From positions 1-50,564 of the forward strand of contig JBBITI010000018.1 in NCBI GenBank assembly GCA_037440885.1: 50,564 nucleotides of DNA, in the 5' to 3' direction. This document shows, in pieces, positions 1 through 49,591 of the stretch (positions within the stretch are counted from its first letter, which is position 1; each line of letters opens with the position of its first letter). Source of the stretch: Dehalococcoidales bacterium (lineage in GTDB: Bacteria > Chloroflexota > Dehalococcoidia > Dehalococcoidales > UBA2162). The notes under the pieces are model-generated. The model was given only the letters and a program-made list of their open reading frames with translations. It made no database searches and had not been told where the DNA came from. A program made the translations under genes and the position numbers.

Positions 1-566
1 GTGATTTACATGATGAAGAGAGCGGTAATTTGAGATGGACGGATGACGAAATCGACCGGCATATCAGCCATGCGGTAAGCGATTTTTCGGAGGCTATTCC
101 AGACGAGGCGACAGCGGTGAAAGAGACGGTGGCGGGATCACGAACGATAGACATCACCGACATGGCGGACCGGATATGCGTAGAGGCGGTGGAGTGGCCG
201 GCGGGGCAGTTCCCACGGCGTTACCAGCCGTTTGAAACCTGGCAAGACAGCCTGATATTGACGGGCGAGGAAGTGCCGGACGGGGCGGAAGCGCATATTT
301 ATTACGGGAAGAGACACAGGCTGGACGCAACAGGAACGAGCATCGCAGAACGTTACTGGGACCTGGTGGCGGCGGGGGCGGCGGGTTATGCCGCGGTGCA
401 GTGGGCGCTGTATGCCATCAACCGGATCAACAGCGGGGGGCCGGCGACGCCGGACAGGATGCTGCGGTGGGGAAGAGCGAGGCTGGAGGTATTCTATGCC
501 CGGTTGAAAATTTACGGTCGGAGAAACCGGGTGCGGGCGGCGCGGCTATACCGGGCGGCAGCGTAA
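1..566 (+). CDS. 5'-truncated phage-like protein, probably a head-tail adaptor/connector
   Basis: Frame is open from position 3 (DLHDEESGNLRWTDDEIDRHISHAV...), so the true start lies left of the window. The RW-(T/S)DDE-I/L N-terminal helix pattern recalls phage adaptor proteins; the function is inferred. Confidence 0.5.
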   Translation, partial: DLHDEESGNLRWTDDEIDRHISHAVSDFSEAIPDEATAVKETVAGSRTIDITDMADRICVEAVEWPAGQFPRRYQPFETWQDSLILTGEEVPDGAEAHIYYGKRHRLDATGTSIAERYWDLVAAGAAGYAAVQWALYAINRINSGGPATPDRMLRWGRARLEVFYARLKIYGRRNRVRAARLYRAAA

Positions 567-595
567 TAAAGAAGAGAAGATAGCGGAGGGAAGGG

Positions 596-871
596 ATGGA
601 TTTCTACAGGATGCTGTGGTCGCGGATCGGGGGACGGCCCTGGACGTATATTGCGAGGGACATCTACCACAGGGTGGAATACCTGGTACTGGTCAGCCTG
701 GTGATAACGGGGTATGCCATCGGGGAGACGGGACTTGTGAGCTGGAAGCTGTTCCTGGTAATCATGACGGCATATACGATCGGCTACGTGCACGGTCATT
801 TTTTCTGGGGCAAAGAGTATGTTCCGAACCAGAAAGCGAACGGGGTGAAAAATGAGAGACCTGAGTTCTAG
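596..871 (+). CDS. small two-TM membrane protein (holin-like, by context only)
   Basis: 91 aa, two hydrophobic segments (YLVLVSLVITGYAIG, LFLVIMTAYTIGYV), charged tail, purine-rich RBS, overlaps the next gene. Confidence 0.55.
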   Translation: MDFYRMLWSRIGGRPWTYIARDIYHRVEYLVLVSLVITGYAIGETGLVSWKLFLVIMTAYTIGYVHGHFFWGKEYVPNQKANGVKNERPEF

Positions 872-2840
872 CCTGCGGGCGGCGCAACAGGCGAGCGTCC
901 GGTCTCCGTATGTGCGGGTGACGGCGAGCAACCGGAGTCACGGAGTGGTGCGGTGGCGGTGGGAAAGAATATATACCGGCAGTGAAGCGGACTACCGGCA
1001 CGGCATGGCAATCGCAGGAAACGGGGCGATGATCCGGGCGCGGATCAGTCCGCCGGCCGACGGGCATAAATTATACCGGCAGACGGTAACGTCTCCCGGA
1101 CCGGAGGCCGATTTCAGCAGTTGGACGCATACCGGCGAGAATAATTGTACGGCGGTGGCGGTGGCCGCGGTGGGGAACGAGGTATCGATATTCTGGATAA
1201 ACACCGCCCGGGAAGTGCGGCGGATACGGAGTACAAACCACGGGTTGAACTGGGGCAATGCGGAGTTGATCGACTATACGCCAACGGCGGCGGGGCAGGG
1301 GCTGGGGGCGGCGTACAAGGCCAACGGGGACCTGGCGGCAGGTTACACCGACCAAACTAATTTGTATATCAAAAAGTGCATCGCGGGCAACTGGCAGGCA
1401 GCGGTGGCCTGTGACAAGACCACAGGCGACCTGAACGGAATCGGCATGGTTTACGACGGAGACTGGGTACTACTGGTGGCAGGGAGCGATGCCGAAGGAA
1501 GAGCAAGGGTGTGGTCGCTGGCATACGGCGACGGAGGCGATGTACCAGCCGGCCAGTGGTCAGGGCCGGAAGCAGTGGCGGCGGCGGAGGCGGGGGCGGG
1601 TTAACAGTTCCGGTATCCCTGCCTGGACCGGAAAGAGACGTTAGAAGGCTATTTTTTGGAAGAATTCAGCGGTAACCAGCCATATCAGCGGATCTACCGG
1701 TCGCACCTGATCCCGGGGACGAGTTGCAAGGACGGGCTGTGGAAAGAACCAGCACCAAGCGACTTAAGCGCGCCGTGCGGGGTGGCGACCGGTCACGCTC
1801 CCCGGAACGAATACCACTGGCTAACGACACCGAGCGGGGTGTGGCGAGCGGCAGCCGCTCTGCAGAGTCGAGAATTGACGGCAGATGTGCTCCGGGTAAG
1901 CATAAAGAGCGAGGAGCGCAGCGGGAAAGCGGTGGTGGAAGTGGACGATGACGGGGCGCAGTATACGCCGTTAGCGGACCCGTTGCGAACCGGCGGCCAG
2001 CTCGATATCTGCCCGGGTTACACGGGTACTGACGGACCGGAAAGCAGCGCCGGGCTGCATTATATACTGGAGGGATACGAGCACCGGCAGGGGGAGGGCA
2101 GGAGGGTACTGGTGCTGTACGGCGGGGATGGGTGGGACAGCCTGAGAGGATGGACCGCCCGGGAGCAGTACCGCTGGAACGGGAAGGAACCGGAACGCAA
2201 TGTGCTGAACATATTAAGGTACATCCTTGCCAGAGCCGGTTTGCGGCTGGTGGTGAAATCGGCGTCGGAAACAATAACAGGCTACTTTCCTGATTTTACG
2301 GTGCATCCGGGAGACAGCGGCGACAAGGTAATCGACCGGCTGCTCAGTTTTGTCCCGGATGCGCTATTCATCGAGGGCGGTGATGTTTACCTGGTAAATC
2401 CGCGGGCGACGGACGTGCCGGAATACGAATACGGCGGCAAGCACGCGGTCGAATCGGCGAGGTACATCCACCAAGCGACGGTGCTGAACTGGGCGCGGGT
2501 CGAGGGACGCGAGACAACGAGCGGGGAAGCGGTGACGGCCGACTTTTTCAACTGGGAGAGCATAGAGAGGGAGGGGGAAGCCCGGATCACGGTGCGCGAC
2601 ATCAATCTGGGTACCGACCAGCTAGCGATGCGGGGGGCGGCGGTGCTACGCAAAGCGGACATCAAATCAAGATCAGGAGAAATCACAGTTCCGGTGAATT
2701 GCGGTCAACAGTTATATGACGTCATCAGTATCAAAGACGGCAGCGACGGGAACAGGACGGCGCGGGTGACCGGCCTGGAATTGACATACGAGGCGGAACA
2801 AAGCCGGTACCGGCACCGGATCTTGCTCTCGGGCGTTTAA
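852..2840 (+). pseudogene. about 662-codon phage tail/baseplate-hub-like gene interrupted by one in-frame TAA at 1602-1604
   Basis: ORFs 852-1604 and 1656-2840 share a frame and the 17 intervening codons are open (QFRYPCLDRKETLEGYF). The N-half has an Asp-box-like RSTNHGLNW; the C-terminus PVNCGQQLYDVISI...ARVTGLELTY resembles hub/tail proteins. Confidence 0.6.
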
Positions 2841-2867
2841 CGAAAAAAGGCAGGGCGGGAAGGAGAT

Positions 2868-3083
2868 ATGAGTATAAGGATGGGGACACTCAAGGAGTTT
2901 AATGCGGGAAGTTACACGGCGACGGTACAGATGACAGCGAGTTACAAAGTGTACCTGGAGGGCGTAAATGTAGCCCGGAACATAGCGGCGGCGGAGATGT
3001 TAAGCGGGCGGAGGGTGGCGGTTGCTTTTTTCGACGACCATAATGTAAAAGAAGCGGTGGTGGTGGCGGTTTTCGCCGGATGA
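2868..3083 (+). CDS. 71-aa beta-rich protein, OB-fold/gpV-spike-like (inferred)
   Basis: AGGAG RBS. Pattern G-x-L-x-x-F...TATVQ...LEGV-x-V...G-R-R-V-A-V-x-F is like the N-terminal OB domain of baseplate spike proteins. Last gene of the cluster. Confidence 0.5.
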   Translation: MSIRMGTLKEFNAGSYTATVQMTASYKVYLEGVNVARNIAAAEMLSGRRVAVAFFDDHNVKEAVVVAVFAG

Positions 3084-3109
3084 CGAGGCGAGGCGGTGGT
3101 GACCCGGTC

Positions 3110-3508
3110 TTATTCTTTTTTGACGGTCTCTTTGGCGATGCTTTTCAGGATGGTGAGGATGCCGATAACCGCCCGCTGTACTTCGACCGGTTCCTGGGCG
3201 AGCATACGGGCGACGAAGGGATCGAGACGGCCGTTGGCGAAGGTGGGGAGGCGTTCTTCACTGGCGACAAGTTTGGACTGAGGCGAGAGGTAGCCGGCCA
3301 GAGTAAATATTTCGTCTTCTTCAAAAGCCAGCGGTTTGGCGATGCGCTGGAGGACGTGGGCGGAGGGAAAGCGTTCGCCTCTTTCGATACGGCCAAGATG
3401 AGAAGCGGACACCCGGGCTTTAGAGGCCAATTCCTGGAGCGTAAGCGACAGCGAGATGCGCTGCTGTTTGATGATTTGCCCCAAGTGAGTTTGCGGTTCT
3501 CTTTCCAT
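3110..3508 (-). CDS. Xre/Cro-C1 family HTH transcriptional regulator
   Basis: LGQIIKQQR..LTLQELASKARVSASHLGRIERGERFPS is a classic HTH_3. Start placed at the ATG at 3508, 7 nt from the -10 box. Confidence 0.9.
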   Translation of the reverse strand: MEREPQTHLGQIIKQQRISLSLTLQELASKARVSASHLGRIERGERFPSAHVLQRIAKPLAFEEDEIFTLAGYLSPQSKLVASEERLPTFANGRLDPFVARMLAQEPVEVQRAVIGILTILKSIAKETVKKE

Positions 3509-3515
3509 CGAGGCC

Positions 3516-3545
3516 ATTATAAATTGGTCATTTGGCAAATGTCAA
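3516..3545 (-). promoter_or_regulatory. sigma70-type promoter of the Xre gene with an overlapping palindrome
   Basis: Minus strand TTGACA-N18-TATAAT; palindrome CATTTG-G-CAAATG at 3529-3541. Confidence 0.7.
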
Positions 3546-3651
3546 GAGAAATTGCGCACCAGAAGGTTTCAAGGCGGGGGCAATCGAGGCCAAATGAAGA
3601 TGAAACAGCACCGGAAACCGGAAAAATGCGCACCGCCTACAGTCACCAGGC

Positions 3652-4110
3652 TCAGACAATGCCCCAGTCGCGGTAACCTTTCTTAATAATCTCGAGATAT
3701 TCCGGGGAGGGTTTGTTTTCCGCTTCTTGCCCGGTTTTGATATAGGTGATTGCTTTGACAGCGATACCGTCTTCAGTGAAAACAGTGACATTGATCCGGT
3801 TAAAGTCCCGGGGGTAACCCCGCAGGTTGTCCAGGCGGCGCAAGTCTTTCTCGGTAATTTCGTAGATACCGCCGGCGACTTTATTACCCTGGGCACCGCG
3901 GATGGTGGCGAAGCCACTCCGGGTCAGGCGGGACCAACCGACGAAGGCGAGACGGTAGTTAGGCAGGACAGCGGTAACCCGGGGGCGGCTTTCGGGAGCA
4001 CGCGCTTTCATCTGCTGTTTATCCAGGTCATCGGCGTAGGCAAAATACATTATTGGTGCCAATTTATCAGTCATCATACGGGCAACGGGTTGTTTATTTG
4101 CGGTGATCAA
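3652..4110 (-). CDS. gamma-glutamylcyclotransferase (GGCT/AIG2-like) family protein with atypical motifs
   Basis: YFAY N-terminus, YRLAF, V-x-G-x-IYEI, PSPEYLEIIKKGY. The start may be the ATG at 4050. Confidence 0.8.
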   Translation of the reverse strand: MITANKQPVARMMTDKLAPIMYFAYADDLDKQQMKARAPESRPRVTAVLPNYRLAFVGWSRLTRSGFATIRGAQGNKVAGGIYEITEKDLRRLDNLRGYPRDFNRINVTVFTEDGIAVKAITYIKTGQEAENKPSPEYLEIIKKGYRDWGIV

Positions 4111-4311
4111 TATGGCATGGTTTTAGTTATCACCAACAGACCCATTATACCGTAGATAAAACAGACTGCAAGCCTGAGACAGCAAAATGACGGGCTGGTA
4201 TTAACGACGCAACTGATCAGTTGCCAGGTTAGTCAGGAGAGAATGTGAACTTTTTCTATTTGATGGTATAATTTTCGTGATATTTTTACGAATATTCAGT
4301 AGGATATAGCT

Positions 4312-5175
4312 GTGTTTGAAGTTGATCGTATTATTCAAGATGATTGTCTCCACGCCCTCAAAGAACTTCCTAATGATTGTGTAGATTTCATCTTCACGTC
4401 TCCGCCTTACGCTGATAATCGTAAGGGTACTTATAAGGGAATCTCGACAGAATGCTATGTCGAATGGTTCCTCCCTATAGCCGATGAGTTGAAACGTGTC
4501 TTAAAGCCGGATGGCTCGTTTGTTTTGAATATTAAAGAACGGACCGCTAATGGTGAGCGTCAGACTTATGTGTTGGAACTCATTTTAGCTATGAAACAAC
4601 TTCAGAGTTGGCTCTGGACAGAAGAATATATGTGGCACAAGAAGAACTGCTATCCAGGGAAATGGCCTAATCGTTTTCGTGATGCGTGGGAACGTTGCCT
4701 TCATTTCACGAAACAGAAACGATTCAGAATGTACCAAGATGCAGTAAAAATTCCGATGGGAAAATGGGCTGAAAAGCGTCTTACACGGTTGAGTGATACT
4801 GATCGAACCAGAGACGAGTCTCACGTTGGTAGTGGCTTTGGCAAGAAAGTCTCTAACTGGGTAGGCAAGCAGAATGTCTATCCTACAAATGTACTTCATC
4901 TTGCTACTGAATGCTCTAACCGAGGTCATAGTGCATCGTTCCCAGTAGCACTGCCTTCTTGGTTCATCAAGCTATTTACTAAAGAAGGGGACTTGGTACT
5001 CGACCCATTTATGGGATCTGGAACTACAGCGATAGCATGTGTTCGACAGAAAAGACATTATCTTGGGATTGAAGCCATGGAGCACTACTATAAGCTTGCT
5101 GTGGAATCGATAGACAAAGCGAAAGCCAAGTCAAACGGCAAAATACCCGGCCAAACTGAATTTACGCTAACATAA
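4312..5175 (+). CDS. beta-class amino-DNA methyltransferase (N4-C/N6-A)
   Basis: Motif IV TSPPY near the N-terminus, motif I VLDPFMGSGTT near the C-terminus, H-x-A-x-FP motif. Confidence 0.92.
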   Translation: MFEVDRIIQDDCLHALKELPNDCVDFIFTSPPYADNRKGTYKGISTECYVEWFLPIADELKRVLKPDGSFVLNIKERTANGERQTYVLELILAMKQLQSWLWTEEYMWHKKNCYPGKWPNRFRDAWERCLHFTKQKRFRMYQDAVKIPMGKWAEKRLTRLSDTDRTRDESHVGSGFGKKVSNWVGKQNVYPTNVLHLATECSNRGHSASFPVALPSWFIKLFTKEGDLVLDPFMGSGTTAIACVRQKRHYLGIEAMEHYYKLAVESIDKAKAKSNGKIPGQTEFTLT

Positions 5176-5207
5176 TATGCATAGAAACAAGTAATCGAGA
5201 CTTACAA

Positions 5208-5939
5208 ATGAAAGCTGTTACTGAACAAAGTGTAAAGACTTATGTCCGAGAGAATATAGGATCGTTCCATTCAAGTAGGCTACAAAGTCTTAGAGAACTC
5301 AAATTAAGTCAGATCCTCCGGAAGAAGAATCCATATTTATTCAAAGCCAAAAACATTTTACTAGCCCAAGATCTCGTCAAGACATTACTCGATGCTCATT
5401 TATCTTCACAAGAAGAGACTTTGTTTGGCAAGTTCCTCGAAAGTCTTGCTGTTTTTATCAACCGTCAGGTATACGGAGGTTGGAAGTCGTCTGCTGACGG
5501 AATGGACCTGGAATTCGATAGAGATGGTATCCGTTATATTTTAACAATAAAGTCCGGGCCTAACTGGGGAAACAGCAGACAGATTAGTAAAATGAAACAA
5601 GATTTTACCAAAGCTAAACGAACAATTCGAACAGGCAACCCCAAATCGAATGTCGTCGCAGTGAACGGATGCTGCTATGGACGCGACGATCGTCCAGACG
5701 AAGGTGACTATTACAAATACTGTGGTCAACGTTTTTGGGAGTTTATCTCAGGTAATAAAAACCTCTATCTAAATATCATAAAACCTTTGGGATACACTGC
5801 AAGGCGAAGGAACACCGAATTCCAGAAGGAATACGCTCAGATCATCAACAAATTTACTGCCGAATTCACTACAGACTTCGTAGTTAATGGAATTATCGAC
5901 TGGGAGACATTGGTCAAATTCAACTCATCTTATACATAA
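5208..5939 (+). CDS. type II restriction endonuclease, PmeII-like
   Basis: Adjacent to the MTase; RKKNPYLF, SSQEETLFGKFLE, D..IKSGPNWGN nuclease-like motif and GQRFWEFISG. Family assignment is from recall. Confidence 0.75.
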   Translation: MKAVTEQSVKTYVRENIGSFHSSRLQSLRELKLSQILRKKNPYLFKAKNILLAQDLVKTLLDAHLSSQEETLFGKFLESLAVFINRQVYGGWKSSADGMDLEFDRDGIRYILTIKSGPNWGNSRQISKMKQDFTKAKRTIRTGNPKSNVVAVNGCCYGRDDRPDEGDYYKYCGQRFWEFISGNKNLYLNIIKPLGYTARRRNTEFQKEYAQIINKFTAEFTTDFVVNGIIDWETLVKFNSSYT

Positions 5940-6224
5940 TTACATCGGTAATTTCAATCAGGCTAAAAAGCCTTTGACCGACAAGGCAGAAACCGCGCAT
6001 CCGCAGCTCATTACTTATAAATAATATTCCTTGATGAATTCATTCAATTTATTTCTACAAAGCTAATGATATACTATTTCGTGACTTTTGAGAGGTACAG
6101 TCAAGATACTTAAGATTGACTTAACATAGAGTAGACGGGAAGCGGAAGATGTTGTAAGATAATAGACTGAAACAGCTACAGGAAGCAGAAAAATAAATAT
6201 CCGGTTGGCGGATCGTTCAGATAG

Positions 6225-6253
6225 TTGACAGCGTACGTGTGCTGTGGTAGTAT
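6225..6253 (+). promoter_or_regulatory. promoter of the ribosomal superoperon
   Basis: TTGACA-N17-TAGTAT with an extended -10 TG. Confidence 0.7.
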
Positions 6254-6382
6254 TCAGTTTTGGCGCTAGTTATTCAGCTCACAGGTTAGTTACAGATCTC
6301 ACAATTTAATCAAGAGGTCTGTCGCCGTGTTAGATGGATGAGATCAAGCTCATCCATTTCGATTCTGAGAGAGGAGAAGCAC

Positions 6383-6811
6383 TTGCCGACAATTAATCAG
6401 CTCGTGCGGAAAGGCCGGGTAAAGCCCGGGAAAAAGAGCAAGACACCTGCTCTGCGTTACGTATACAACGCATTAAAAAACAGGACCAAACGCGGTGAAG
6501 GCTCACCTCAAAAGAGGGGGGTCTGCCTCCAGGTCAAGACCACGACACCGAAGAAACCGAATTCGGCGTTGAGAAAGATCGCCAAGGTGCGTCTGAGCAA
6601 CGGGATCGAGGTGACGGCCTACATTCCGGGGGAGGGCCACGAACTGCAAGAGCACTCAGTGGTACTGGTGCGGGGCGGGCGGGTACCGGACTTGCCGGGT
6701 GTGCGTTATCACATCATCCGGGGGACCCTGGATACGACCGGCGTGGCCAACCGGAAGCGAGGCCGCAGCCTGTACGGTGCCAAACGAGCCAAGTCCACAG
6801 CAGCAGCTTAA
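6383..6811 (+). CDS. rpsL: 30S ribosomal protein S12
   Basis: TTG start after GAGGAG; [33 protein letters not shown]. Confidence 0.98.
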
Positions 6812-6820
6812 GGAGACGAG

Positions 6821-7291
6821 ATGCCAAGGCGAAGCCGAAAAATCATAAGAGAAATAGTCCCTGACCCACGATATCAGAATATGGTGGTCTCGAAATTTGT
6901 CAACCGCATAATGAAGCGGGGCAAGAAGAGCACTGCCGAGAAAATCGTGTATACGGCGTTAAGCGCGATCGAACAGCAGGAGCAGAAGCCGGCTATTTCC
7001 GTCCTCGAGCAAGCAGTGCGCAATGCGACGCCGCAACTTGAAGTGAAAGCACGCCGGGTGGGCGGGGCGACTTACCAGGTACCGGTAGAAATTCCGCAAG
7101 CGCGCGCGTTAACGCTGGCGATGCGCTGGTTAATAGCGGCAGCTTCGGCGCGGTCAGGAAAATCGATGGCTGAAAAACTGGCAAGCGAACTGAGCGATGC
7201 AGCCAAGGGGCAGGGAGCTACGATAAAGAAGCGTGATGATACGCACAAGATGGCAGAAGCGAACCGGGCTTTCGCACATTACAGATGGTAA
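6821..7291 (+). CDS. rpsG: 30S ribosomal protein S7
   Basis: RRVGGATYQVP, HKMAEANRAFAHYRW. Confidence 0.98.
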   Translation: MPRRSRKIIREIVPDPRYQNMVVSKFVNRIMKRGKKSTAEKIVYTALSAIEQQEQKPAISVLEQAVRNATPQLEVKARRVGGATYQVPVEIPQARALTLAMRWLIAAASARSGKSMAEKLASELSDAAKGQGATIKKRDDTHKMAEANRAFAHYRW

Positions 7292-7352
7292 GGATTAATA
7301 AAAGTTAAACATGGTAAGACCCGCAGTAAGGACCGAATCTAGAGAAAAACCG

Positions 7353-9425
7353 ATGGCAGAGCGTTTTCCACTGGTTGATATCAGGAACATAGCGTTCATC
7401 GCACATATCGATGCCGGGAAGACGACAGTCACCGAAAAGATACTTTTTTATACCGGGCAGACCTATAAAGTAGGCGCTGTCGACGAAGGGACCGCGGTAA
7501 TGGACTGGATGGACCAGGAAAGAGAGCGCGGCATCACGATCACGGCGGCGGCGACGACGACACAATGGAAAGAACACCGCATCAATATCATCGACACTCC
7601 GGGGCACGTTGATTTTACAGCCGAGGTTGAGCGCAGCCTGAGGGTTCTGGACGGTGGGGTGGTGTTATTTGACGCGGTCGCCGGGGTAGAGGCACAATCA
7701 GAGACCGTTTGGCGGCAGGCCAACCGATACCATGTATCGCGGATCTGTTTCATCAATAAAATGGACCGGGTGGGGGCGAATTTCAGCCGTACGGTGAAGA
7801 TGATCGAAGAACGGTTGAAAGCCAAACCGCTTCCGATCCAGTACCCGCTGGGAAGCGAAACCGGCTTCCACGGGATCGTCGACCTGGTAGAGAACAAAGC
7901 CTGGAGCTTTAACGGCGAACCAGGGAGCGCACCGATAGCGATCGAGATTCCCGAGAACGAAGCGGATAAAGTGAGTGAGGCGAGACACCTGCTGATCGAG
8001 AAACTGGCGGAATCCGACGACCGGTTATTGAGCATATACCTTGACGGAAATGAGATTGAACCGGACGATATAAGGGCGGCACTGCGGCGAGTAACGATTG
8101 CGGCGACAGTTGTCCCGGTATTGTGCGGCAGCGCCCTGCGCAACAAGTGCATTCAACCTTTGCTGGATGCGATCCTGCACTACTTGCCTTCGCCGGGAGA
8201 TATGCCAGCGATCAAGGCAATTTCAGTGAGCAATAATCAGACCGTAGAAAGGCAACCGGATGACGCCGCTCCGTTTACTGCACTGGCATTCAAGGTAATG
8301 ACCGATCCGTTCGTGGGACGGCTGGTTTACCTGAGGATTTATTCGGGACGAGTAGAGACCGGAGAACAGGTCTACAATTCATCCTCAACCAAGAGAGAAC
8401 GTATCGGACGGCTGTTATTGATGCATGCCAACCGACGCGAGGAAATAACCGGAGCCGATACAGGGTCGATCGTGGCCGCCCTGGGGCTGAAGAACACGTT
8501 TACCGGCGATACGTTATGCGATCCGGGAGAGCCGTTGTTACTGGAATCGATCCGATTCCCGGAACCGGTGATTTCAGTGGCGATCGAACCGAAAACGAAA
8601 GCGGACCAGGACCGGATGGGCGAGGCATTACAGAAACTGGCAGAAGAAGACCCGACTTTCAAGGTTGCCTATAACCAGGAAACCGGGCAGACATTGATAT
8701 CCGGAATGGGCGAGTTGCACCTTGATGTGCTGGTGCGCCGTTTGCTGAGTGAATTTAACGTCAGTGCCAAAGTCGGCCGGCCGCGGGTGGCATACAAGGA
8801 GACCATCACCAAGGCCGTAAAAACCGAAGGCCGTTTTGTACGGCAATCAGGCGGGCACGGCCAGTACGGGCATGTTGAGATAGAATTCGAACCGGGTGAG
8901 TCCGGGTGCGGTTTGCAATTCGAGGAAAAACTGCGGGGCGCGCCGATCCCGAGAAATTATATTCCAGCGGTGGAAGCGGGCTTGAAAGAGGCGATGGAGA
9001 GCGGAGCACTGGGGGGCTACCCGGTGATCGATGTCAAGGCAACGCTGGTCGACGGCAGTTATCATGAAGTCGACTCTTCGGAACTGGCTTACAAAATAGC
9101 AGCTTCGCTGGCTTTCAAGGAAGGCATGTCCAAAGGGAAGCCGATATTGCTGGAGCCGATCATGAAGCTGGAAGTGGTGACCCCGGAAGAGTTCATGGGC
9201 GATATACTAAGCGATATTCATTCCCGCCGGGGCCAGGTGGGGTCGATCGAGACTTATACGGGCACGACGACGATCCACGCATTAATACCGCTGGCAGAGT
9301 CTTTCGGGTATGCGACCAGTTTACGGTCCAACACTCAGGGGAGAGCAACACATTCGCTGGAGTTTGCCAGGTACCAGCAGGTAACAGCAGAGCTGGCAGC
9401 TAAAATCACGGAAAAGACAGGATAG
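7353..9425 (+). CDS. fusA: elongation factor G
   Basis: [32 protein letters not shown]. Start is the ATG at 7353 or 7311. Confidence 0.97.
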
Positions 9426-9430
9426 TCAAG

Positions 9431-9739
9431 ATGGCGAAACAGAAGATACGGATCAAGTTGAAAGGCTTCGACTATAAACTGGTAGACCAGGCAGCGGAGC
9501 AGATCGTGGAGACGGTAGAGCGTACCGGTGCCGTGGTGTCGGGACCAATCCCACTGCCGACCAGGATCAAACGTTTTAGCGTCATCCGGTCACCTTTTAT
9601 CGACAAGCGTTCCCAGGAGCAATTCGAGATCAGGACCCACACACGCTTGATCGATATAGTGGAAACCAGTTCGAAAACCATTGATTCTTTAACCAGCCTG
9701 AATCTTCCGTCTGGTGTTGAAATAGATATCAAGTTGTGA
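9431..9739 (+). CDS. rpsJ: 30S ribosomal protein S10
   Basis: [25 protein letters not shown]. Confidence 0.98.
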
Positions 9740-9744
9740 GAGAG

Positions 9745-10359
9745 ATGTTACAAGGAATAATCGGCCGCAAGCTGGGGATGACCCAGATGTACAGAGAAAA
9801 CGGGAGAATCGAAGCTGTCACTGCTGTCGAAGCCGGTCCGTGTGCGATCACACAGATCAAAACACCGGATAAAGAGGGATATACAGCAGTACAGTTAGGT
9901 TTTGAAGAAAGCAAGCGTGTGAATTCGGCTGAAAAAGGCCATTTAAAAGGTCTGGCGCCATACCGGCATCTACGGGAATTCCGAGTAGAATCGGTATCTG
10001 AAACCAAGGTGGGCGACTTGATCGACGTCAATGTGTTCAAGCCAGGCGACAAGGTTGACGTGGTTGGCATTTCCAAAGGAAAAGGTTTCGCCGGCGTAGT
10101 GAAAAGACATCATTTTAAAGGCGGACCGAAAACACACGGACAAACCGACCGGCAACGTCATCCAGGAGCCATCGGGTCCACCACGACGCCAGGTCATGTG
10201 AAAAAAGGGTTACGCATGGCGGGACACATGGGAAGCCAGCGGGTAACCGTACGCAGGCTGGAAATAATGAAGATCGATCCGGCCCGCAATATTCTACTGA
10301 TCCGAGGGGCAGTGCCAGGCTCCGATGACGAGCTTGTATTAATAAAGAAGTCGAAGTAA
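9745..10359 (+). CDS. rplC: 50S ribosomal protein L3
   Basis: GRKLGMTQ, KGKGFAG, MAGHMG. Start is the ATG at 9745 or the GTG at 9736. Confidence 0.97.
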   Translation: MLQGIIGRKLGMTQMYRENGRIEAVTAVEAGPCAITQIKTPDKEGYTAVQLGFEESKRVNSAEKGHLKGLAPYRHLREFRVESVSETKVGDLIDVNVFKPGDKVDVVGISKGKGFAGVVKRHHFKGGPKTHGQTDRQRHPGAIGSTTTPGHVKKGLRMAGHMGSQRVTVRRLEIMKIDPARNILLIRGAVPGSDDELVLIKKSK

Positions 10360-10371
10360 AGGAACAGACAA

Positions 10372-11013
10372 GTGCAAGTCCCAGTACGCAGCACTACAGG
10401 TAAAACAGTTAAACAGATAGAGATCAGCGACTACGTATTCGGTCTGAAACCGAACGTAGCGGTAGCGCATCAGGCATTATTGCGACAGCGGGCGAACGAA
10501 CGGCAGGGCAATGCCAGCGCCAAGACACGCGGCGAGGTAGCGGGAAGCACCAAGAAGCCGTATGCCCAGAAACACACGGGCAGGGCGCGGGCGGGGAGCA
10601 TCAAATCGCCACTGAAGAGAGGCGGTGGTATCATATTCCCACCGAAACCGAGAAGCTATCAGCAGGCGATGCCGAAGAAGATGAGGCGACTGGCGATCCG
10701 CTCGGTACTTTCAAGCAAAGTTGCGGAGCAAGAATTTATCGTGCTGGACCAATTCAGCATGGAAGCTCCAAAGACAAAAGAGATGTACGGAGTATTGAGC
10801 GCGCTGGGGATCGATTCCACGGCATTGATTGCGACAGCGCACCCGGACCAAAACGTAATCAAGTCAGCCCGCAACATACCCGGGGTGACCACCATACCGG
10901 CGAATTTATTGAACGTAGCCGATTTATTGTCCCACAAAGTACTGCTGATGACCGAAGAGGCCGTCCGGAAAACCGAAGAGTTGTGGGGCGACAGCACTTC
11001 CGAAGGAGAATAA
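10372..11013 (+). CDS. rplD: 50S ribosomal protein L4
   Basis: KTRGEVAG, QKHTGRARAGS, PKPRSY. Confidence 0.97.
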   Translation: MQVPVRSTTGKTVKQIEISDYVFGLKPNVAVAHQALLRQRANERQGNASAKTRGEVAGSTKKPYAQKHTGRARAGSIKSPLKRGGGIIFPPKPRSYQQAMPKKMRRLAIRSVLSSKVAEQEFIVLDQFSMEAPKTKEMYGVLSALGIDSTALIATAHPDQNVIKSARNIPGVTTIPANLLNVADLLSHKVLLMTEEAVRKTEELWGDSTSEGE

Positions 11014-11014
11014 G

Positions 11015-11302
11015 GTGAACCTGTACGAAGTACTAAAACGCCCATTAATAACAGAAAAATACACGGCACTTCAAGCTGAAGGCAAATATGCCTTCGAGGT
11101 ATCAATGAGCGCTACGAAACCGCAGGTAAAAAATGCGGTGGAGAAGGCGTTCAAGGTGAGTGTGACCGGCTTAAACATGATGAACGTAGCCGGAAGAACA
11201 CGGAGGGTGGGGAGAAGAGTAATACCGGCGAAACCGTGGAAAAAAGCGGTAGTTACGTTAAAGCCGGGGGATAAAATAGAGCTGTTTGAAACAGCTTCTT
11301 AG
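11015..11302 (+). CDS. rplW: 50S ribosomal protein L23
   Basis: [14 protein letters not shown]. Confidence 0.97.
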
Positions 11303-11316
11303 GTGGAGTAAATACA

Positions 11317-12147
11317 GTGGCAGTTAAGCAATACCGTCCGACATCACCCGGCCGCCGGGGCATGACGGGCGCCAGTTTCGAAGAGGTCACCAAGGACAAG
11401 CCAGAAAAATCGCTACTGGCAGCTCTACGAAAACGCGGCGGACGCAATAACCAGGGTAAAGTGACCGTGCATCACCGGGGCGGCGGGGCGAAGCGGAATT
11501 TGCGGATACTGGATTTCAAGAGAGACAAGGTAGGGATTCCGGGCCGGGTGGCCGCGATCGAGTACGATCCGAACCGGACGGCGCGGATTGCCCTGATATA
11601 TTATGCCGATGGGGAGAAGCGATATATTTTAGCCCCGATCGGGCTTAATGTCGGCGATACGATCATGACCGGACCGGATGCCGAAATGCGGCCCGGCAAC
11701 AACATGGCCATAAAGCTGATGCCCAGCGGGGCCATGATCCACAGTATCGAAATCCAGAAGGGGAAAGGGGCGCAACTGGTCCGAAGCGCCGGAACCGCGG
11801 CACAACTGATGGCGAAAGAGGGCGATAGAGCGTTGATACGGCTGCCTTCAGGGGAAATGAGATACGTGATGGGCGAATGTACGGCCACCATCGGGCAGGT
11901 GGGGAACGTCGACCACCAGGCGATAAAACTGGGCAAGGCGGGGCGGAAGCGGTGGCTGGGAATACGGCCAACAGTGAGAGGCACGGCGAAGACGCCGCGC
12001 GATCATCCGCACGGTGGCGGGGAAGGGCGGAGCCCGATAGGCTTACCCGGACCCAAGTCTCCGTGGGGCAAGCCGACGCTGGGTCACAAGACGCGGAAGA
12101 AGAGCAAACCGTCGAGCAAGATGATAATGAAGCGACGGGGCAAATAA
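11317..12147 (+). CDS. rplB: 50S ribosomal protein L2
   Basis: [23 protein letters not shown]. Confidence 0.98.
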
Positions 12148-47545: not shown

Positions 47546-49591
47546 TTATTCCTGGATTCGAGTAGCTACCGGCCGGTTGCCAGAGCGGCGCCCGAGCCAG
47601 AAGGCGAAGAGCAGGACTATCAAAGCACCCAGTCCGATCATCGTCCATAACGCCCATAACGGCAGGACGGAACCGACAGCAAATGTCCAGATGTTCGACC
47701 AGTTGCCTTCATTGCCCGCATTGTCCACCGCCCTGACCCGCCAGTAATACGGCGCATCCTTCTTGGTGGCTTTTAATGTCTCGCCTTTGAGCAAAGAGTA
47801 TTCAGGGGTGGTTAAACCGGTTTTTTCCACCACGATCGTGCCGGGACTGAAGCCGACGCTGGTGGCGATCTGGAATTCGTAGGTTAACCCGCTGGGGTCC
47901 GAAACCGGATTCCAGGTGTATTTGCCCTGGGCCTTATACCGCTTTCCGGTCTGCGGTTCCAGCAACGTCGGTACGGGCGGCGCCACCCCCTCCATGTAAT
48001 AGCTTAACGGCAGGGTGATCGTCCCGTCGCTTACAATTATCGTATGCGCACCGCTGCGGCTGGCAGGAGCTTTAAAAATCACCGAGAAATTGGAATCCGC
48101 CCCGACAGCCCCCGTCGCCACCTGTTTACCGCCGTAAGTGACTGTCAGTGTTGCCCCGGCTTTAAAGCCGACCCCGCTGACCGTAACCGTGGCTCCCACG
48201 TAACCCGGCGACGATGCAGAAGTCGGTGTGATCGTGGCACTGGTGGTTACATTGAAATTTACTTCCTGGGTGTTCAAGCCGTCGCTTACCCGGATTTTGT
48301 AATTTCCCGCCTGGCGGGCCGGTGCTTCAAATGTGCTTGTAAAGGCGCCCAGAGAATTGGTGCTCGCCGTCCCTACGGGAGTGTTATCAAAGGTCAACGT
48401 TATCGCTGAATTAGCCAGGAATCCGTTACCGTTCAGGGTGATCCGTGTTCCCACATATCCGCTGTTCGGCGACAGAGCAACGCTGGAAGTAACTTTGAAA
48501 CTGGCAGTCGAATTATTGATACTGTCGGCTGCCCTCAACGTGCGTTCACCCGCTCCGATGGCGGGAATGCTGACCGTGGCGGTAAACCGGCCGAGGCTGT
48601 CGCTGGTAATCCCTCCAGAACCGATTGCCGTGTTGTCCAGGGTCAGGCTAATCGTCTCGCTTGCCCGGAAACCATTGCCCGTGACCGTAACCTGAGTACC
48701 GACCGGTCCGGTCGCCGGGGTGATGGTAATCCCCGAAGTAACGCTGATGGTTGCCGTCTGGAAATTGCCCACGGCATCCTGGGCTCTGATGACATGCGAT
48801 CCCGAGGTTGTCGCCGGTATCGCAAAATTCGTGATCGTAAATCCGCCGAAGGCATCGGAAGATGTGCTGGCCACCGAGGCGTCGTCGAAATAGATGGTTG
48901 TCCCGGAGTTAGCCGCATATCCGGTACCGGTTAAGGTGAGCGCGGTTTTCACGGGACCGGACGTCGGGCTCACCGTAAGCTTGGGCAGGATGGTAAACAT
49001 GGTAGTAGCCTGTAGAAACGAAGCTACGTCATACGCCGCGAACGTATGATATCCCTGCGTGCCGCGCGGGATGGTGAAACTGGTCGAAAACATGCCGTAG
49101 GCATTTGCTGTGGTCGTTAGCTGGATGACTGAATCCAGGTAGATGGTTACCGAGTTGCTAGCGGTGAAGCCGGTCCCGGTGATCGTGATCTGGTCGCCCA
49201 CGTTGCCGGTTATTGTGCTCAAGGTCATTCCCGGTATCACCGTAAACGTGCGTGCCGCACTTGTTTCGCTGCCCACGGTCACCCAGACGTAATAGGTACC
49301 TCTCCCTACCGTAGGCACGCTGAAGGGAATACTGGTAAAGTTGCCGGTGGCCGTCGAACCTCCGCCGTAAGTATAAGCGCCGGATGTAGTATAACTGCTG
49401 TTAAAATATATCGTGATCGTCCCGACGGGAAATCCCGTACCGCTCAGATACACGACCTGGCCGCTTGTGCCGCTGGCAGGACTGGGCACACCCAGTGTCC
49501 CGGCCGCGAAAGCCGGAATCACCGGCAGCATTCCAACAATCAGGGCCATCGCCAACGCCGTCCCCAATATCCGGAGGAACTTCTTTCGCAT
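47546..49591 (-). CDS. secreted, membrane-anchored Ig-like (IPT/TIG-type) repeat surface protein
   Basis: Signal peptide ending PAFA; 5-6 repeats of about 82 aa (P.SG.VG..IT.TG.GF...G.F...F.IP...G.H.I.A.D); Fn3-like unit (YYWRVRAVD.AGN.G.WS); C-terminal TM followed by RR. Confidence 0.85.
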   Translation of the reverse strand: MRKKFLRILGTALAMALIVGMLPVIPAFAAGTLGVPSPASGTSGQVVYLSGTGFPVGTITIYFNSSYTTSGAYTYGGGSTATGNFTSIPFSVPTVGRGTYYVWVTVGSETSAARTFTVIPGMTLSTITGNVGDQITITGTGFTASNSVTIYLDSVIQLTTTANAYGMFSTSFTIPRGTQGYHTFAAYDVASFLQATTMFTILPKLTVSPTSGPVKTALTLTGTGYAANSGTTIYFDDASVASTSSDAFGGFTITNFAIPATTSGSHVIRAQDAVGNFQTATISVTSGITITPATGPVGTQVTVTGNGFRASETISLTLDNTAIGSGGITSDSLGRFTATVSIPAIGAGERTLRAADSINNSTASFKVTSSVALSPNSGYVGTRITLNGNGFLANSAITLTFDNTPVGTASTNSLGAFTSTFEAPARQAGNYKIRVSDGLNTQEVNFNVTTSATITPTSASSPGYVGATVTVSGVGFKAGATLTVTYGGKQVATGAVGADSNFSVIFKAPASRSGAHTIIVSDGTITLPLSYYMEGVAPPVPTLLEPQTGKRYKAQGKYTWNPVSDPSGLTYEFQIATSVGFSPGTIVVEKTGLTTPEYSLLKGETLKATKKDAPYYWRVRAVDNAGNEGNWSNIWTFAVGSVLPLWALWTMIGLGALIVLLFAFWLGRRSGNRPVATRIQE

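Follow-up and report, generated by a model that had tools for sequence, protein, structure and literature searches.

A neck and tail-tip gene module of a probable domesticated, gene transfer agent-like particle set in Dehalococcoidales

Introduction

Gene transfer agents (GTAs), among them RcGTA and the other alphaproteobacterial GTAs, BaGTA, VSH-1, Dd1 and VTA, are built from phage-derived head, packaging and tail genes without integrase or replication genes. They are inherited vertically under purifying selection, are partly spread over several loci and are probably controlled by host regulators. Here we describe a set of phage-derived genes with similar traits in the order Dehalococcoidales (Chloroflexota). 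Its distal part is a module of four genes at the left end of a 50,564-nucleotide stretch of DNA from a Dehalococcoidales bacterium (assembly GCA_037440885.1, contig JBBITI010000018.1, positions 1 to 50,564, forward strand), which we call the window. It is well supported that the module is real, that it forms the distal end of a particle set derived from phage, and that the host maintains this set. With moderate confidence, we read positions 1–3083 of the window, together with an Xre-family gene that reaches to 3538, as the neck and tail-tip module of a domesticated, GTA-like and probably SOS-induced particle set that is vertically inherited in Dehalococcoidales. The evidence comes from gene anatomy, predicted folds, distribution, synteny, tree congruence, selection and a common operator.

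The set differs from known GTAs in several respects. RcGTA is siphovirus-like, whereas the present set is short-tailed: an SU10-like adaptor is followed by a fused propeller and hub and by an OB-fold plug, with no tube or tape measure. It appears to be of independent origin in Chloroflexota, has a scaffold gene with no protease seen, and mobile integrase-bearing relatives of it persist. Its putative control is by a LexA-like operator and not by CtrA or GafA, and it is known from its genes. In the library of papers searched, we found no description of a GTA for Dehalococcoidia, Dehalococcoides or Dehalogenimonas, nor of this element in Chloroflexi. A related preprint (bioRxiv 10.64898/2026.09.15.751708) is about another element, IME1, and does not mention GTA, portal or terminase.

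Two further groups of phages and phage-like machines resemble parts of the set. Phage SU10 (Kuravirus) is short-tailed too; our adaptor matches its adaptor family (PF24175), and there is a weak match of the capsid to SU10_MCP (1e-7) and a faint one of the portal to SU10_portal. In contrast to SU10, neither a nozzle nor a tail needle is matched by sequence, the portal comes closest to SPP1 Gp6-like portals, the genome is far smaller and the window adaptor scores under the Pfam cut-off. The hub–spike assemblies of Mu and P2, of the extracellular contractile injection systems (eCIS, with the PVC and AFP particles) and of type VI secretion systems (gp44/gpD/VgrG with gp45/gpV) share with our set a predicted hub fold, an OB fold like that of the gpV-type N-terminal domain (Z 8.0–9.6) and the order hub then spike. 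Unlike them, the present set gives no sequence-family match, its hub is fused to a predicted N-terminal six-bladed propeller, its spike is an OB domain alone, and sheath, tube and wedge are missing; the hub appears to dock on a podovirus-type adaptor instead. The propeller part shares its fold with the fucose lectins AFL and AAL and the sialidases Neu2 and NanH, a likeness seen at the level of the predicted fold.

Results and Discussion

The window module and its predicted folds

The source genome (G000) is a metagenome-assembled genome (MAG) of 116 contigs that is 86% complete at ~3–6× depth, and the window starts at base 1 of its contig C18. Genomes are labelled G, and loci or contigs of relatives L. 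An earlier note on the window had described four tightly packed, co-oriented genes ending at a convergent regulator, and this layout and its coordinates hold. All four genes lie on the + strand. The adaptor gene (SU10-adaptor-like, head-to-tail; 3–566) is open at its 5′ end at the contig start and encodes 187 aa, compared with 196–217 aa in relatives. It is followed by a gene for a 91-aa protein with two hydrophobic segments (596–871), the 3′ end of which shares 20 nt with the start of the propeller-hub gene (852–2840; its product is called hub below). The gene for P70, a 71-aa OB-fold protein and candidate mini-spike or plug on the hub, lies at 2868–3083. The part of the description that failed is the integrity of the ~662-aa gene. 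An in-frame TAA at 1602–1604 splits it into 250 aa and 411 aa, the reading frame 852–1604 being continued in frame by 1605–2840. The stop falls on a conserved aromatic position (F/Y in the consensus); hub homologues, of which there are at least 381, are uninterrupted proteins, most of them 660–668 aa long.

The hub orthologue of L113 was modelled with AlphaFold using 59 sequences (predicted local distance difference test, pLDDT, 76; predicted template modelling score, pTM, 0.73). Residues ~26–336 of the model are predicted to form a six-bladed β-propeller. In VIA comparisons, the propeller reached Z 24 to the AFL and AAL fucose lectins and Z 22–23 to sialidases, with a root-mean-square deviation of ~3 Å, 254–286 aligned residues and 8–12% identity. 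Foldseek matched the hub model to the eCIS structure 7aef_q (1.7e-12), to Mu gp44 (1wru, 4.3e-11; TM 0.61 on the target) and to VgrG, PVC and AFP hubs (range E 1e-12 to 1e-9), and a search of BFVD gave ‘Phage protein D’ (1.1e-13). Because residues 26–336 are taken up by the propeller, the gp44/gpD/VgrG-type match is assigned to the C-half, which probably has the hub fold. A T7-type nozzle had been considered for the ~662-aa protein and was dropped once the fold showed a hub. By sequence, neither the window halves nor the L113 orthologue belonged to any Pfam or PHROG family. The hub family consensus contains one Asp-box-like motif, S-T-D-Y-G-x-S-W; in the window copy, its D is replaced by N.

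For the window P70, a model built from 72 sequences (pLDDT 92.6) predicts a five-stranded OB barrel. It gave VIA Z scores of 9.6 to the Mu baseplate chain 9ki1_V, 8.4 to the R2 pyocin spike and 8.0 to P2 gpV, and Foldseek found no match at E ≤ 0.001. The generic OB domains of PAN and IF1 score equally high, so the reading of P70 as a spike rests on its fold together with gene order; in relatives, the P70 gene always follows the hub gene. At 71 aa, P70 is an OB domain alone, lacking the β-helical spike and apex of the P2 gpV/Mu gp45 type. The Asp-box-type N-half, hub-like C-half and OB fold that the earlier note had read from the sequence are borne out by these predicted structures, and the structural check against phage virion proteins that it had named gave strong hub and OB-fold matches.

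The adaptor-like character claimed for the first gene also stood. The window copy, which is 5′-truncated, matched Pfam PF24175 (SU10_adaptor) with E 5.5e-5 and 24.1 bits, below the gathering cut-off of 27 bits; the full-length L113 orthologue reached 3.8e-9 and 37.7 bits. The best tblastn match of relatives' adaptors in G000 was the window open reading frame (ORF) at 3–566, with 56% identity. The 91-aa protein matched no Pfam or PHROG family. An N-terminal motif, LWSR-GGRPWTYI-RD, is common to it and to the small protein just upstream of the L113 hub gene, and from its sequence it may be holin-like or membrane-associated.

In scans of the five module proteins with PHROGs and Pfam, the sub-threshold adaptor match was the sole match. 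Integrase, tube, sheath and tape-measure families were not detected in the module, no tRNA was found in window positions 1–12000, no PADLOC family matched the window proteins, and tblastn of the window proteins against their own genome gave no paralogues. The earlier note had seen no integrase or tRNA at this boundary, and no tube, sheath or tape measure between adaptor and hub; the scans agree on both counts, and relatives have no such tail genes upstream either.

The complete gene cluster in relatives

Relatives of the hub were found on 63 IMG/VR contigs and in 177 species genomes of GTDB, almost all of which bear a Dehalococcoidales or Dehalococcoidia label. Eighty of the 177 GTDB loci were kept for ORF calling, clustering, and Pfam and PHROG scans. 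The relatives carry a compact, co-oriented cluster of ~8.5 kb. It begins with a regulator, a Cys-rich helix-turn-helix (HTH) protein of 100–130 aa that resembles Mor and late activators, and continues with a portal gene (SPP1_portal 6.9e-23; phrog_64 2e-38), a coiled-coil scaffold and an HK97-type capsid of 305–307 aa (phrog_212 1.4e-72). Next come a variable cassette that includes Laminin_G_3 proteins (5e-28), the adaptor (SU10_adaptor), one to three small membrane proteins, the hub (663–668 aa) and the 70-aa P70. In the Pfam and PHROG scans, no tube, sheath, tape-measure, protease, lysin, integrase or replication family was found inside this cluster. The set is no match for a tailocin, as tube and sheath families are absent and portal, capsid and terminase are conserved.

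The earlier note had placed head genes to the left of the window. Relatives do have regulator, portal, scaffold and capsid in front of the adaptor; in G000 the contig ends there, and head genes were not found. A small terminase-like gene (TerS) and the large terminase gene (TerL; Terminase_6C, 1.5e-5) precede the cluster on a few contigs. TerL was present in exactly one copy in the five genomes tested, with 74–83% identity. Its position varies. TerS-TerL of G001 lies just left of the cluster, with two or three genes on the reverse strand in between (for an IPT/TIG surface protein and an HTH_17 protein); on its far side are the host genes for a CT398-like protein, RNase H and an S41 protease. 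In G002 and G005, TerL is on a separate contig, in G002 followed by homoserine dehydrogenase, and in G109, a single contig, it lies 677 kb from the head genes.

Two sites in the cluster are variable in content. Between capsid and adaptor, loci L065–L218 carry alternative cassettes (protein clusters 9/8/28, 12/10/14 or 30/31/37), some with Laminin_G_3, and one cassette protein has 421 aa with GSG(T/A)E-type repeats. This slot may set target specificity. The interval between P70 and xre holds an optional reverse-strand block in many genomes (e.g. L065, L071 and L083), made up of an S26-peptidase-like protein, two unknown proteins, two response regulators and a histidine kinase. Just upstream of TerS in L145, L149, L153, L205 and L210 there is a short conserved, unannotated ORF, MRLLRLAVE..RWDLAAHTIVLA.

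Distribution, inheritance and selection

The capsid gene was found in 237 of the 363 genomes of the order, in 100 of the 131 of high quality and in 108 of the 156 genera, mostly with one match per genome. Capsid identity was 78–89% among the 150 matches listed, leaving aside the query's own genome (100%, 93%). TerL was found in 262 of the 363 genomes (115/131 high-quality; 116/156 genera), with 68–87% identity among the 150 matches listed. Three single-contig genomes of genus g49 (G063–G065, 1.4–1.5 Mb) gave TerL matches of E 1e-153 to 1e-194 and are not among the capsid-positive genomes listed; what they carry may be another phage or a remnant with terminase alone. In family f16, 10 of 14 genomes have the capsid gene.

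For synteny and trees, the locus was fetched from 60 genomes of 22 families. Gene order was kept across the 60 genomes, and every one had a capsid ORF of 302–307 aa. The hub gene was intact in 46 of them; 3 have it split, 2 lack it and in 9 a contig end cuts it. The flanks are specific to families: in many, the left flank consists of TerL, the surface protein and xis, and in the window's own family of enolase and further host genes. A tree of portal, capsid, hub and adaptor (44 genomes, 16 families) required 17 family changes, with a minimum of 15 and a mean of 31 in shuffled data; none of 200 shuffles was as low. Families f38 (11 rows), f3 (5) and f45 (3) were monophyletic in this concatenated tree. 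The portal and capsid tree (60 rows) required 18 changes, equal to the minimum, compared with a shuffled mean of 43.4. One locus labelled Deltaproteobacteria (L066, JAUVYB010000007.1) is a typical copy nested among those of Dehalococcoidales, which is more probably explained by a mistake in binning or labelling than by transfer.

Median pairwise identities among the GTDB loci were 0.82 for capsid, 0.72 for portal, 0.70 for P70, 0.65 for hub and 0.63 for adaptor; the adjacent host genes had 0.71 (FAD enzyme) and 0.65 (YqeY). Nei–Gojobori dN/dS for seven genes in 10 congeneric pairs lay between 0.02 and 0.35 (capsid 0.02–0.14, portal 0.05–0.12, hub 0.10–0.21, adaptor 0.07–0.35, P70 0.06–0.20). 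Vertical inheritance and purifying selection are thus found here as in GTAs. The earlier note had taken the module for the distal end of a particle that is conserved, maintained by the host and very short-tailed, and it had named synteny, copy number, tree congruence and dN/dS as checks. The outcome favours it throughout: flanks fixed by family, mostly one copy per genome with presence in most of the order, near-minimal family changes and low dN/dS.

An operator common to two operons

Within 150 nt upstream of the regulator gene, 52 of 56 loci carry the box GAAC-N4-GTGC, set within TAGAAC-N4-GTGCTA and placed between TTGAC and an AT-rich −10 region. The density of the box was 5.9 per kb in regulator upstream regions and 0.29 per kb elsewhere in those loci. 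Of nine distinct genomes or contigs, six have the same box upstream of TerS. A conserved promoter form, GACAAAAT-N-TTGAC-N-TAGAAC-N4-GTGCTA-AT-rich, stands both before the regulator (e.g. L172, L187) and before TerS (L151, L153), that is, before two physically separated operons. Exact GAAC-N4-GTTC upstream of the regulator was found in 3 of 57 loci alone. For comparison, we inspected the lexA genes of five genomes including G000, where GAAC-N4-GTTC was perfect in 4 of 6 loci and had one mismatch in one more; these boxes lie at −30 to −46 from the start of the match to the LexA DNA-binding domain. Judged by sequence, the operator common to the two separated operons is one base off a putative LexA box. 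Elsewhere in the source genome, a 393-aa ORF may belong to the SOS regulon, as it is preceded at a distance of 26 nt by a perfect AGAAC-N4-GTTCT palindrome (G000:C30:10181).

The operator bears on the possibility that the particles are kept for another purpose, as PBSX-like killers or decoys, as a superinfection barrier or as DNA-free shells. The likely SOS control does resemble that of defective killer phages, a piercing-type hub with an OB plug and lectin-like binders would suit the tail tip of such a particle, and the transfer function that we favour is itself putative. Yet TerS and TerL equal the capsid in conservation and distribution and have the same operator, which argues for DNA-filled heads; a contractile killer would need the sheath and tube that are missing, and PADLOC matches none of the window proteins. 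We regard a purpose of this kind as improbable.

Evidence against the GTA-like reading, and mobile relatives

Several points weigh against a domesticated, GTA-like set. Both the GTA role, which is read from genes, and the binding of LexA to a box with one mismatch are putative. At the covered loci, the hub gene is split in 3 of 51 and absent in 2 of 51. Two IMG/VR elements from different samples, L226 (13.7 kb) and L227 with L060 (17.3 kb), carry the same structural genes beside an integrase, so that mobile forms exist and leave room for co-divergence of virus and host. The remaining points concern the window copy: its hub gene carries a stop in this assembly; its hub keeps 132 of the 157 columns that are ≥98% conserved, where other members keep ≥94%; its hub branch is 0.61 long, compared with 0.25 and 0.29 in the congeners G305 and G307; and regulator, portal, scaffold, capsid and TerL were found on no G000 contig by tblastn with relatives' proteins, in a MAG that is incomplete as stated above.

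The integrase-bearing elements lead to the main rival, in which small temperate short-tailed viruses of ~17–18 kb co-diverge with Dehalococcoidales, and the chromosomal copies are persisting grounded or defective prophages without benefit to the host, or are mobilised from elsewhere. Upstream of TerS, L226 and L227 have an integrase (PF00589, 1.2e-35), a Rep-O-like gene, and genes for a pol-beta-thumb protein and an ArdC-N protein, and the overall order is int-rep-TerS-TerL-portal-scaffold-capsid...hub-P70. L226 and L227/L060 lack the regulator gene and the surface-protein block, and a genome of ~17–18 kb fits them. They form one clade inside the chromosomal copies in the portal and capsid tree, with ordinary branch lengths. 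Some chromosomal copies are broken or partial, and IMG/VR classes 63 such contigs as viral.

Against this rival, blastp of the early genes with 3150 ORFs of chromosomal loci gave one distant relative (~30% identity) of phage-type integrase, and no relatives of the Rep-O-like gene or of the other two early genes queried. A tyrosine recombinase (PF00589) was found within 50 kb of the element in none of 5 genomes; serine recombinases were not searched. Host genes or hundreds of kilobases lie between terminase and head genes, and host synteny is fixed by family. Moreover, dN/dS is low, and across 22 families the capsid is more conserved than the host genes next to it; a defective prophage would be expected to decay over so long a time. 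On balance, we hold a co-diverging virus with grounded copies to be distinctly unlikely as an account of the chromosomal set.

Apart from the serine recombinases, which the search did not cover, the chromosomal copies have structural and packaging genes without integrase or replication genes, as GTAs do. An integrated prophage is not indicated, as there is no integrase in the window or in chromosomal relatives and no tRNA in the stretch of the window that was scanned; att repeats were not searched for. The earlier note had held that an upstream integrase with patchy distribution would mean an ordinary prophage. This is not the situation of the chromosomal copies, although the two integrase-bearing relatives do exist. 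The same observations bear on a phage satellite that borrows helper functions, such as a phage-inducible chromosomal island (PICI). Capsid-forming PICIs have their own capsid, portal and small terminase, which the present set also has, and its size is small. However, an integrase and a primase or replicase are absent from chromosomal loci, the position is fixed and inherited vertically across the order, and the set has its own large terminase and tail tip. A satellite is hardly credible.

The copy in the source genome

The copy in the window differs from the rest of the family. Its median identity to other hubs is 47%, compared with 65% among the others; the corresponding values are 53 and 63% for the adaptor, 61 and 70% for P70, 62 and 65% for Xre and 58 and 65% for the host protein YqeY. 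In the hub tree, it groups with the copies of G305 and G307, two of the three same-genus copies, with support of 100. Substitutions in the window hub avoid conserved columns: 82–85% of residues are kept in the most conserved class and 18–21% in the least.

To examine the stop codon, we used metagenome contigs of run X1, from the probable source sample (~3.5×), and of run X2, from a sister sample; coverage had holes, and the runs found have 3–11× depth. The X1 contig agrees with TAA at 1602–1604. An X2 contig that is ~98% identical (368 nt with 8 differences) carries A>C at 1604, so that the codon is TAC (Tyr). Either the stop arose very recently as a nonsense mutation, or low coverage led to an error here. 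Another X2 contig extends 225 nt to the left of window base 1, so the element continues leftward in nature.

The right flank of the window copy is unlike that in the rest of its family. On the same contig, at a distance of 45–55 kb from the element, there are homologues of the IPT/TIG surface protein (window 47582–49582, − strand) and of YqeY (G000:C18:54613–55164); in other families, both adjoin the element directly. The distant position of these flank genes suggests a rearrangement with a breakpoint at the element. Enolase, the family's usual left flank, gave a sole match in G000 that is 38% identical and lies mid-contig on C40, and was of no help in joining contigs.

For this genome alone, a decaying remnant has to be considered, with head and packaging genes lost, the hub broken and no particles made. 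The TAA, the faster evolution of the hub with 25 of 157 near-invariant residues lost, the missing regulator, portal, scaffold, capsid and TerL and the rearranged locus would all fit decay. They are countered by the Tyr codon of the ~98% identical strain, by substitutions that still avoid conserved columns and by intact adaptor, P70 and membrane-protein genes. In addition, the contig ends inside the adaptor gene, another contig runs further left, and the MAG is thinly covered and incomplete. We consider a remnant unlikely, if a serious contender. The window copy is vertically inherited, fast-evolving, rearranged and divergent; its hub gene may be broken, and it may be incomplete.

Base composition

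GTAs also have raised GC and G-over-C skew; for alphaproteobacterial GTA clusters, one report (PMC9836097) describes more G than C as well as elevated GC. Bases 1–3000 of the window have a GC content of 0.57–0.63 and a GC skew of +0.19 to +0.32. Among the 2-kb windows of the genome (n = 3505; mean GC 0.497, standard deviation 0.034), C18:1–2000 is in the top few on both measures (GC 0.605, skew 0.241). On coding strands, the module has GC 0.597, skew 0.235 and GC at third codon positions (GC3) of 0.715; rpsL-rpsG-fusA have 0.550, 0.130 and 0.631. The earlier note had stated that the composition matches that of host core genes. The direction is indeed the same, but the module lies further out in both GC and skew, and the match was overstated. 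The elements of relatives exceed the GC of their flanks by a mean of 3.2 points, and the coding-strand G excess is 0.083 in the element compared with 0.027 in host flanks, being higher in 52 of 64 loci. Recent acquisition from a GC-rich donor was entertained and dropped, as the window hub groups with same-genus copies and relatives too run above flank GC.

Proposed mechanism and significance

We infer a GTA function because packaging and head genes are intact and co-regulated, excision and replication functions are absent, and inheritance is vertical and order-wide under selection; control by LexA, packaging of host DNA, release and transfer would all be parts of it. In the mechanism that we propose, DNA damage would free the LexA-like operator in the promoters of both operons. 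Heads would then assemble and terminase would fill them with DNA, which, without excision and replication functions, would be host DNA. The portal would be closed by adaptor, hub and plug, giving a tube-less, very short tail, and the propeller and variable lectin-like proteins would bind the surface of the recipient cell. More tentatively, and somewhat short of what we would call probable, Dehalococcoidales may carry an independent SOS-triggered GTA derived from a ~18-kb temperate short-tailed virus, with a tail reduced to adaptor, OB plug and a trimeric hub to which a lectin- or sialidase-like propeller is fused; a variable lectin-like cassette would pick the recipients, and the particles would be a main route of gene exchange in these subsurface and organohalide-respiring bacteria. 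Dehalococcoides cells are wall-less, and the tube-less design may suit S-layer-covered cells without a peptidoglycan wall.

If the particles move host DNA, they would add a GTA lineage to the handful known, in most members of an abundant subsurface order, and a new tube-less tail. In one genus, the capsid gene is present in ten single-contig genomes that are 99% complete, so cultured carriers may exist. IMG/VR lists 63 such host fragments as viral, so prophage predictors will count them as prophages.

Neighbouring genes

The module ends at a convergent Xre-family HTH gene (3110–3538, − strand; Pfam HTH_3, 6.6e-11) and lies 3.25 kb from rpsL, which starts at 6338; the earlier note had placed such a regulator at this end, ~3 kb from the ribosomal operon. 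Xre orthologues follow P70, directly or behind the optional block, in 34 of 80 GTDB loci and are absent there in some families, so the Xre gene is often linked to the distal end of the element. Next in the window is a GGACT gene (3652–4110; Pfam). It is followed by a Type II restriction–modification pair, an N6/N4 methylase (4312–5175; PF01555, 1.9e-47) and an EcoO109I-type endonuclease (5208–5939; PF14511, 9e-88). The AT-rich character ascribed to this pair is evident, as 4312–5939 has a GC content of 0.38–0.44. The pair forms an AT-rich island (window 4200–6000) between the element and the ribosomal genes, and was probably acquired recently.

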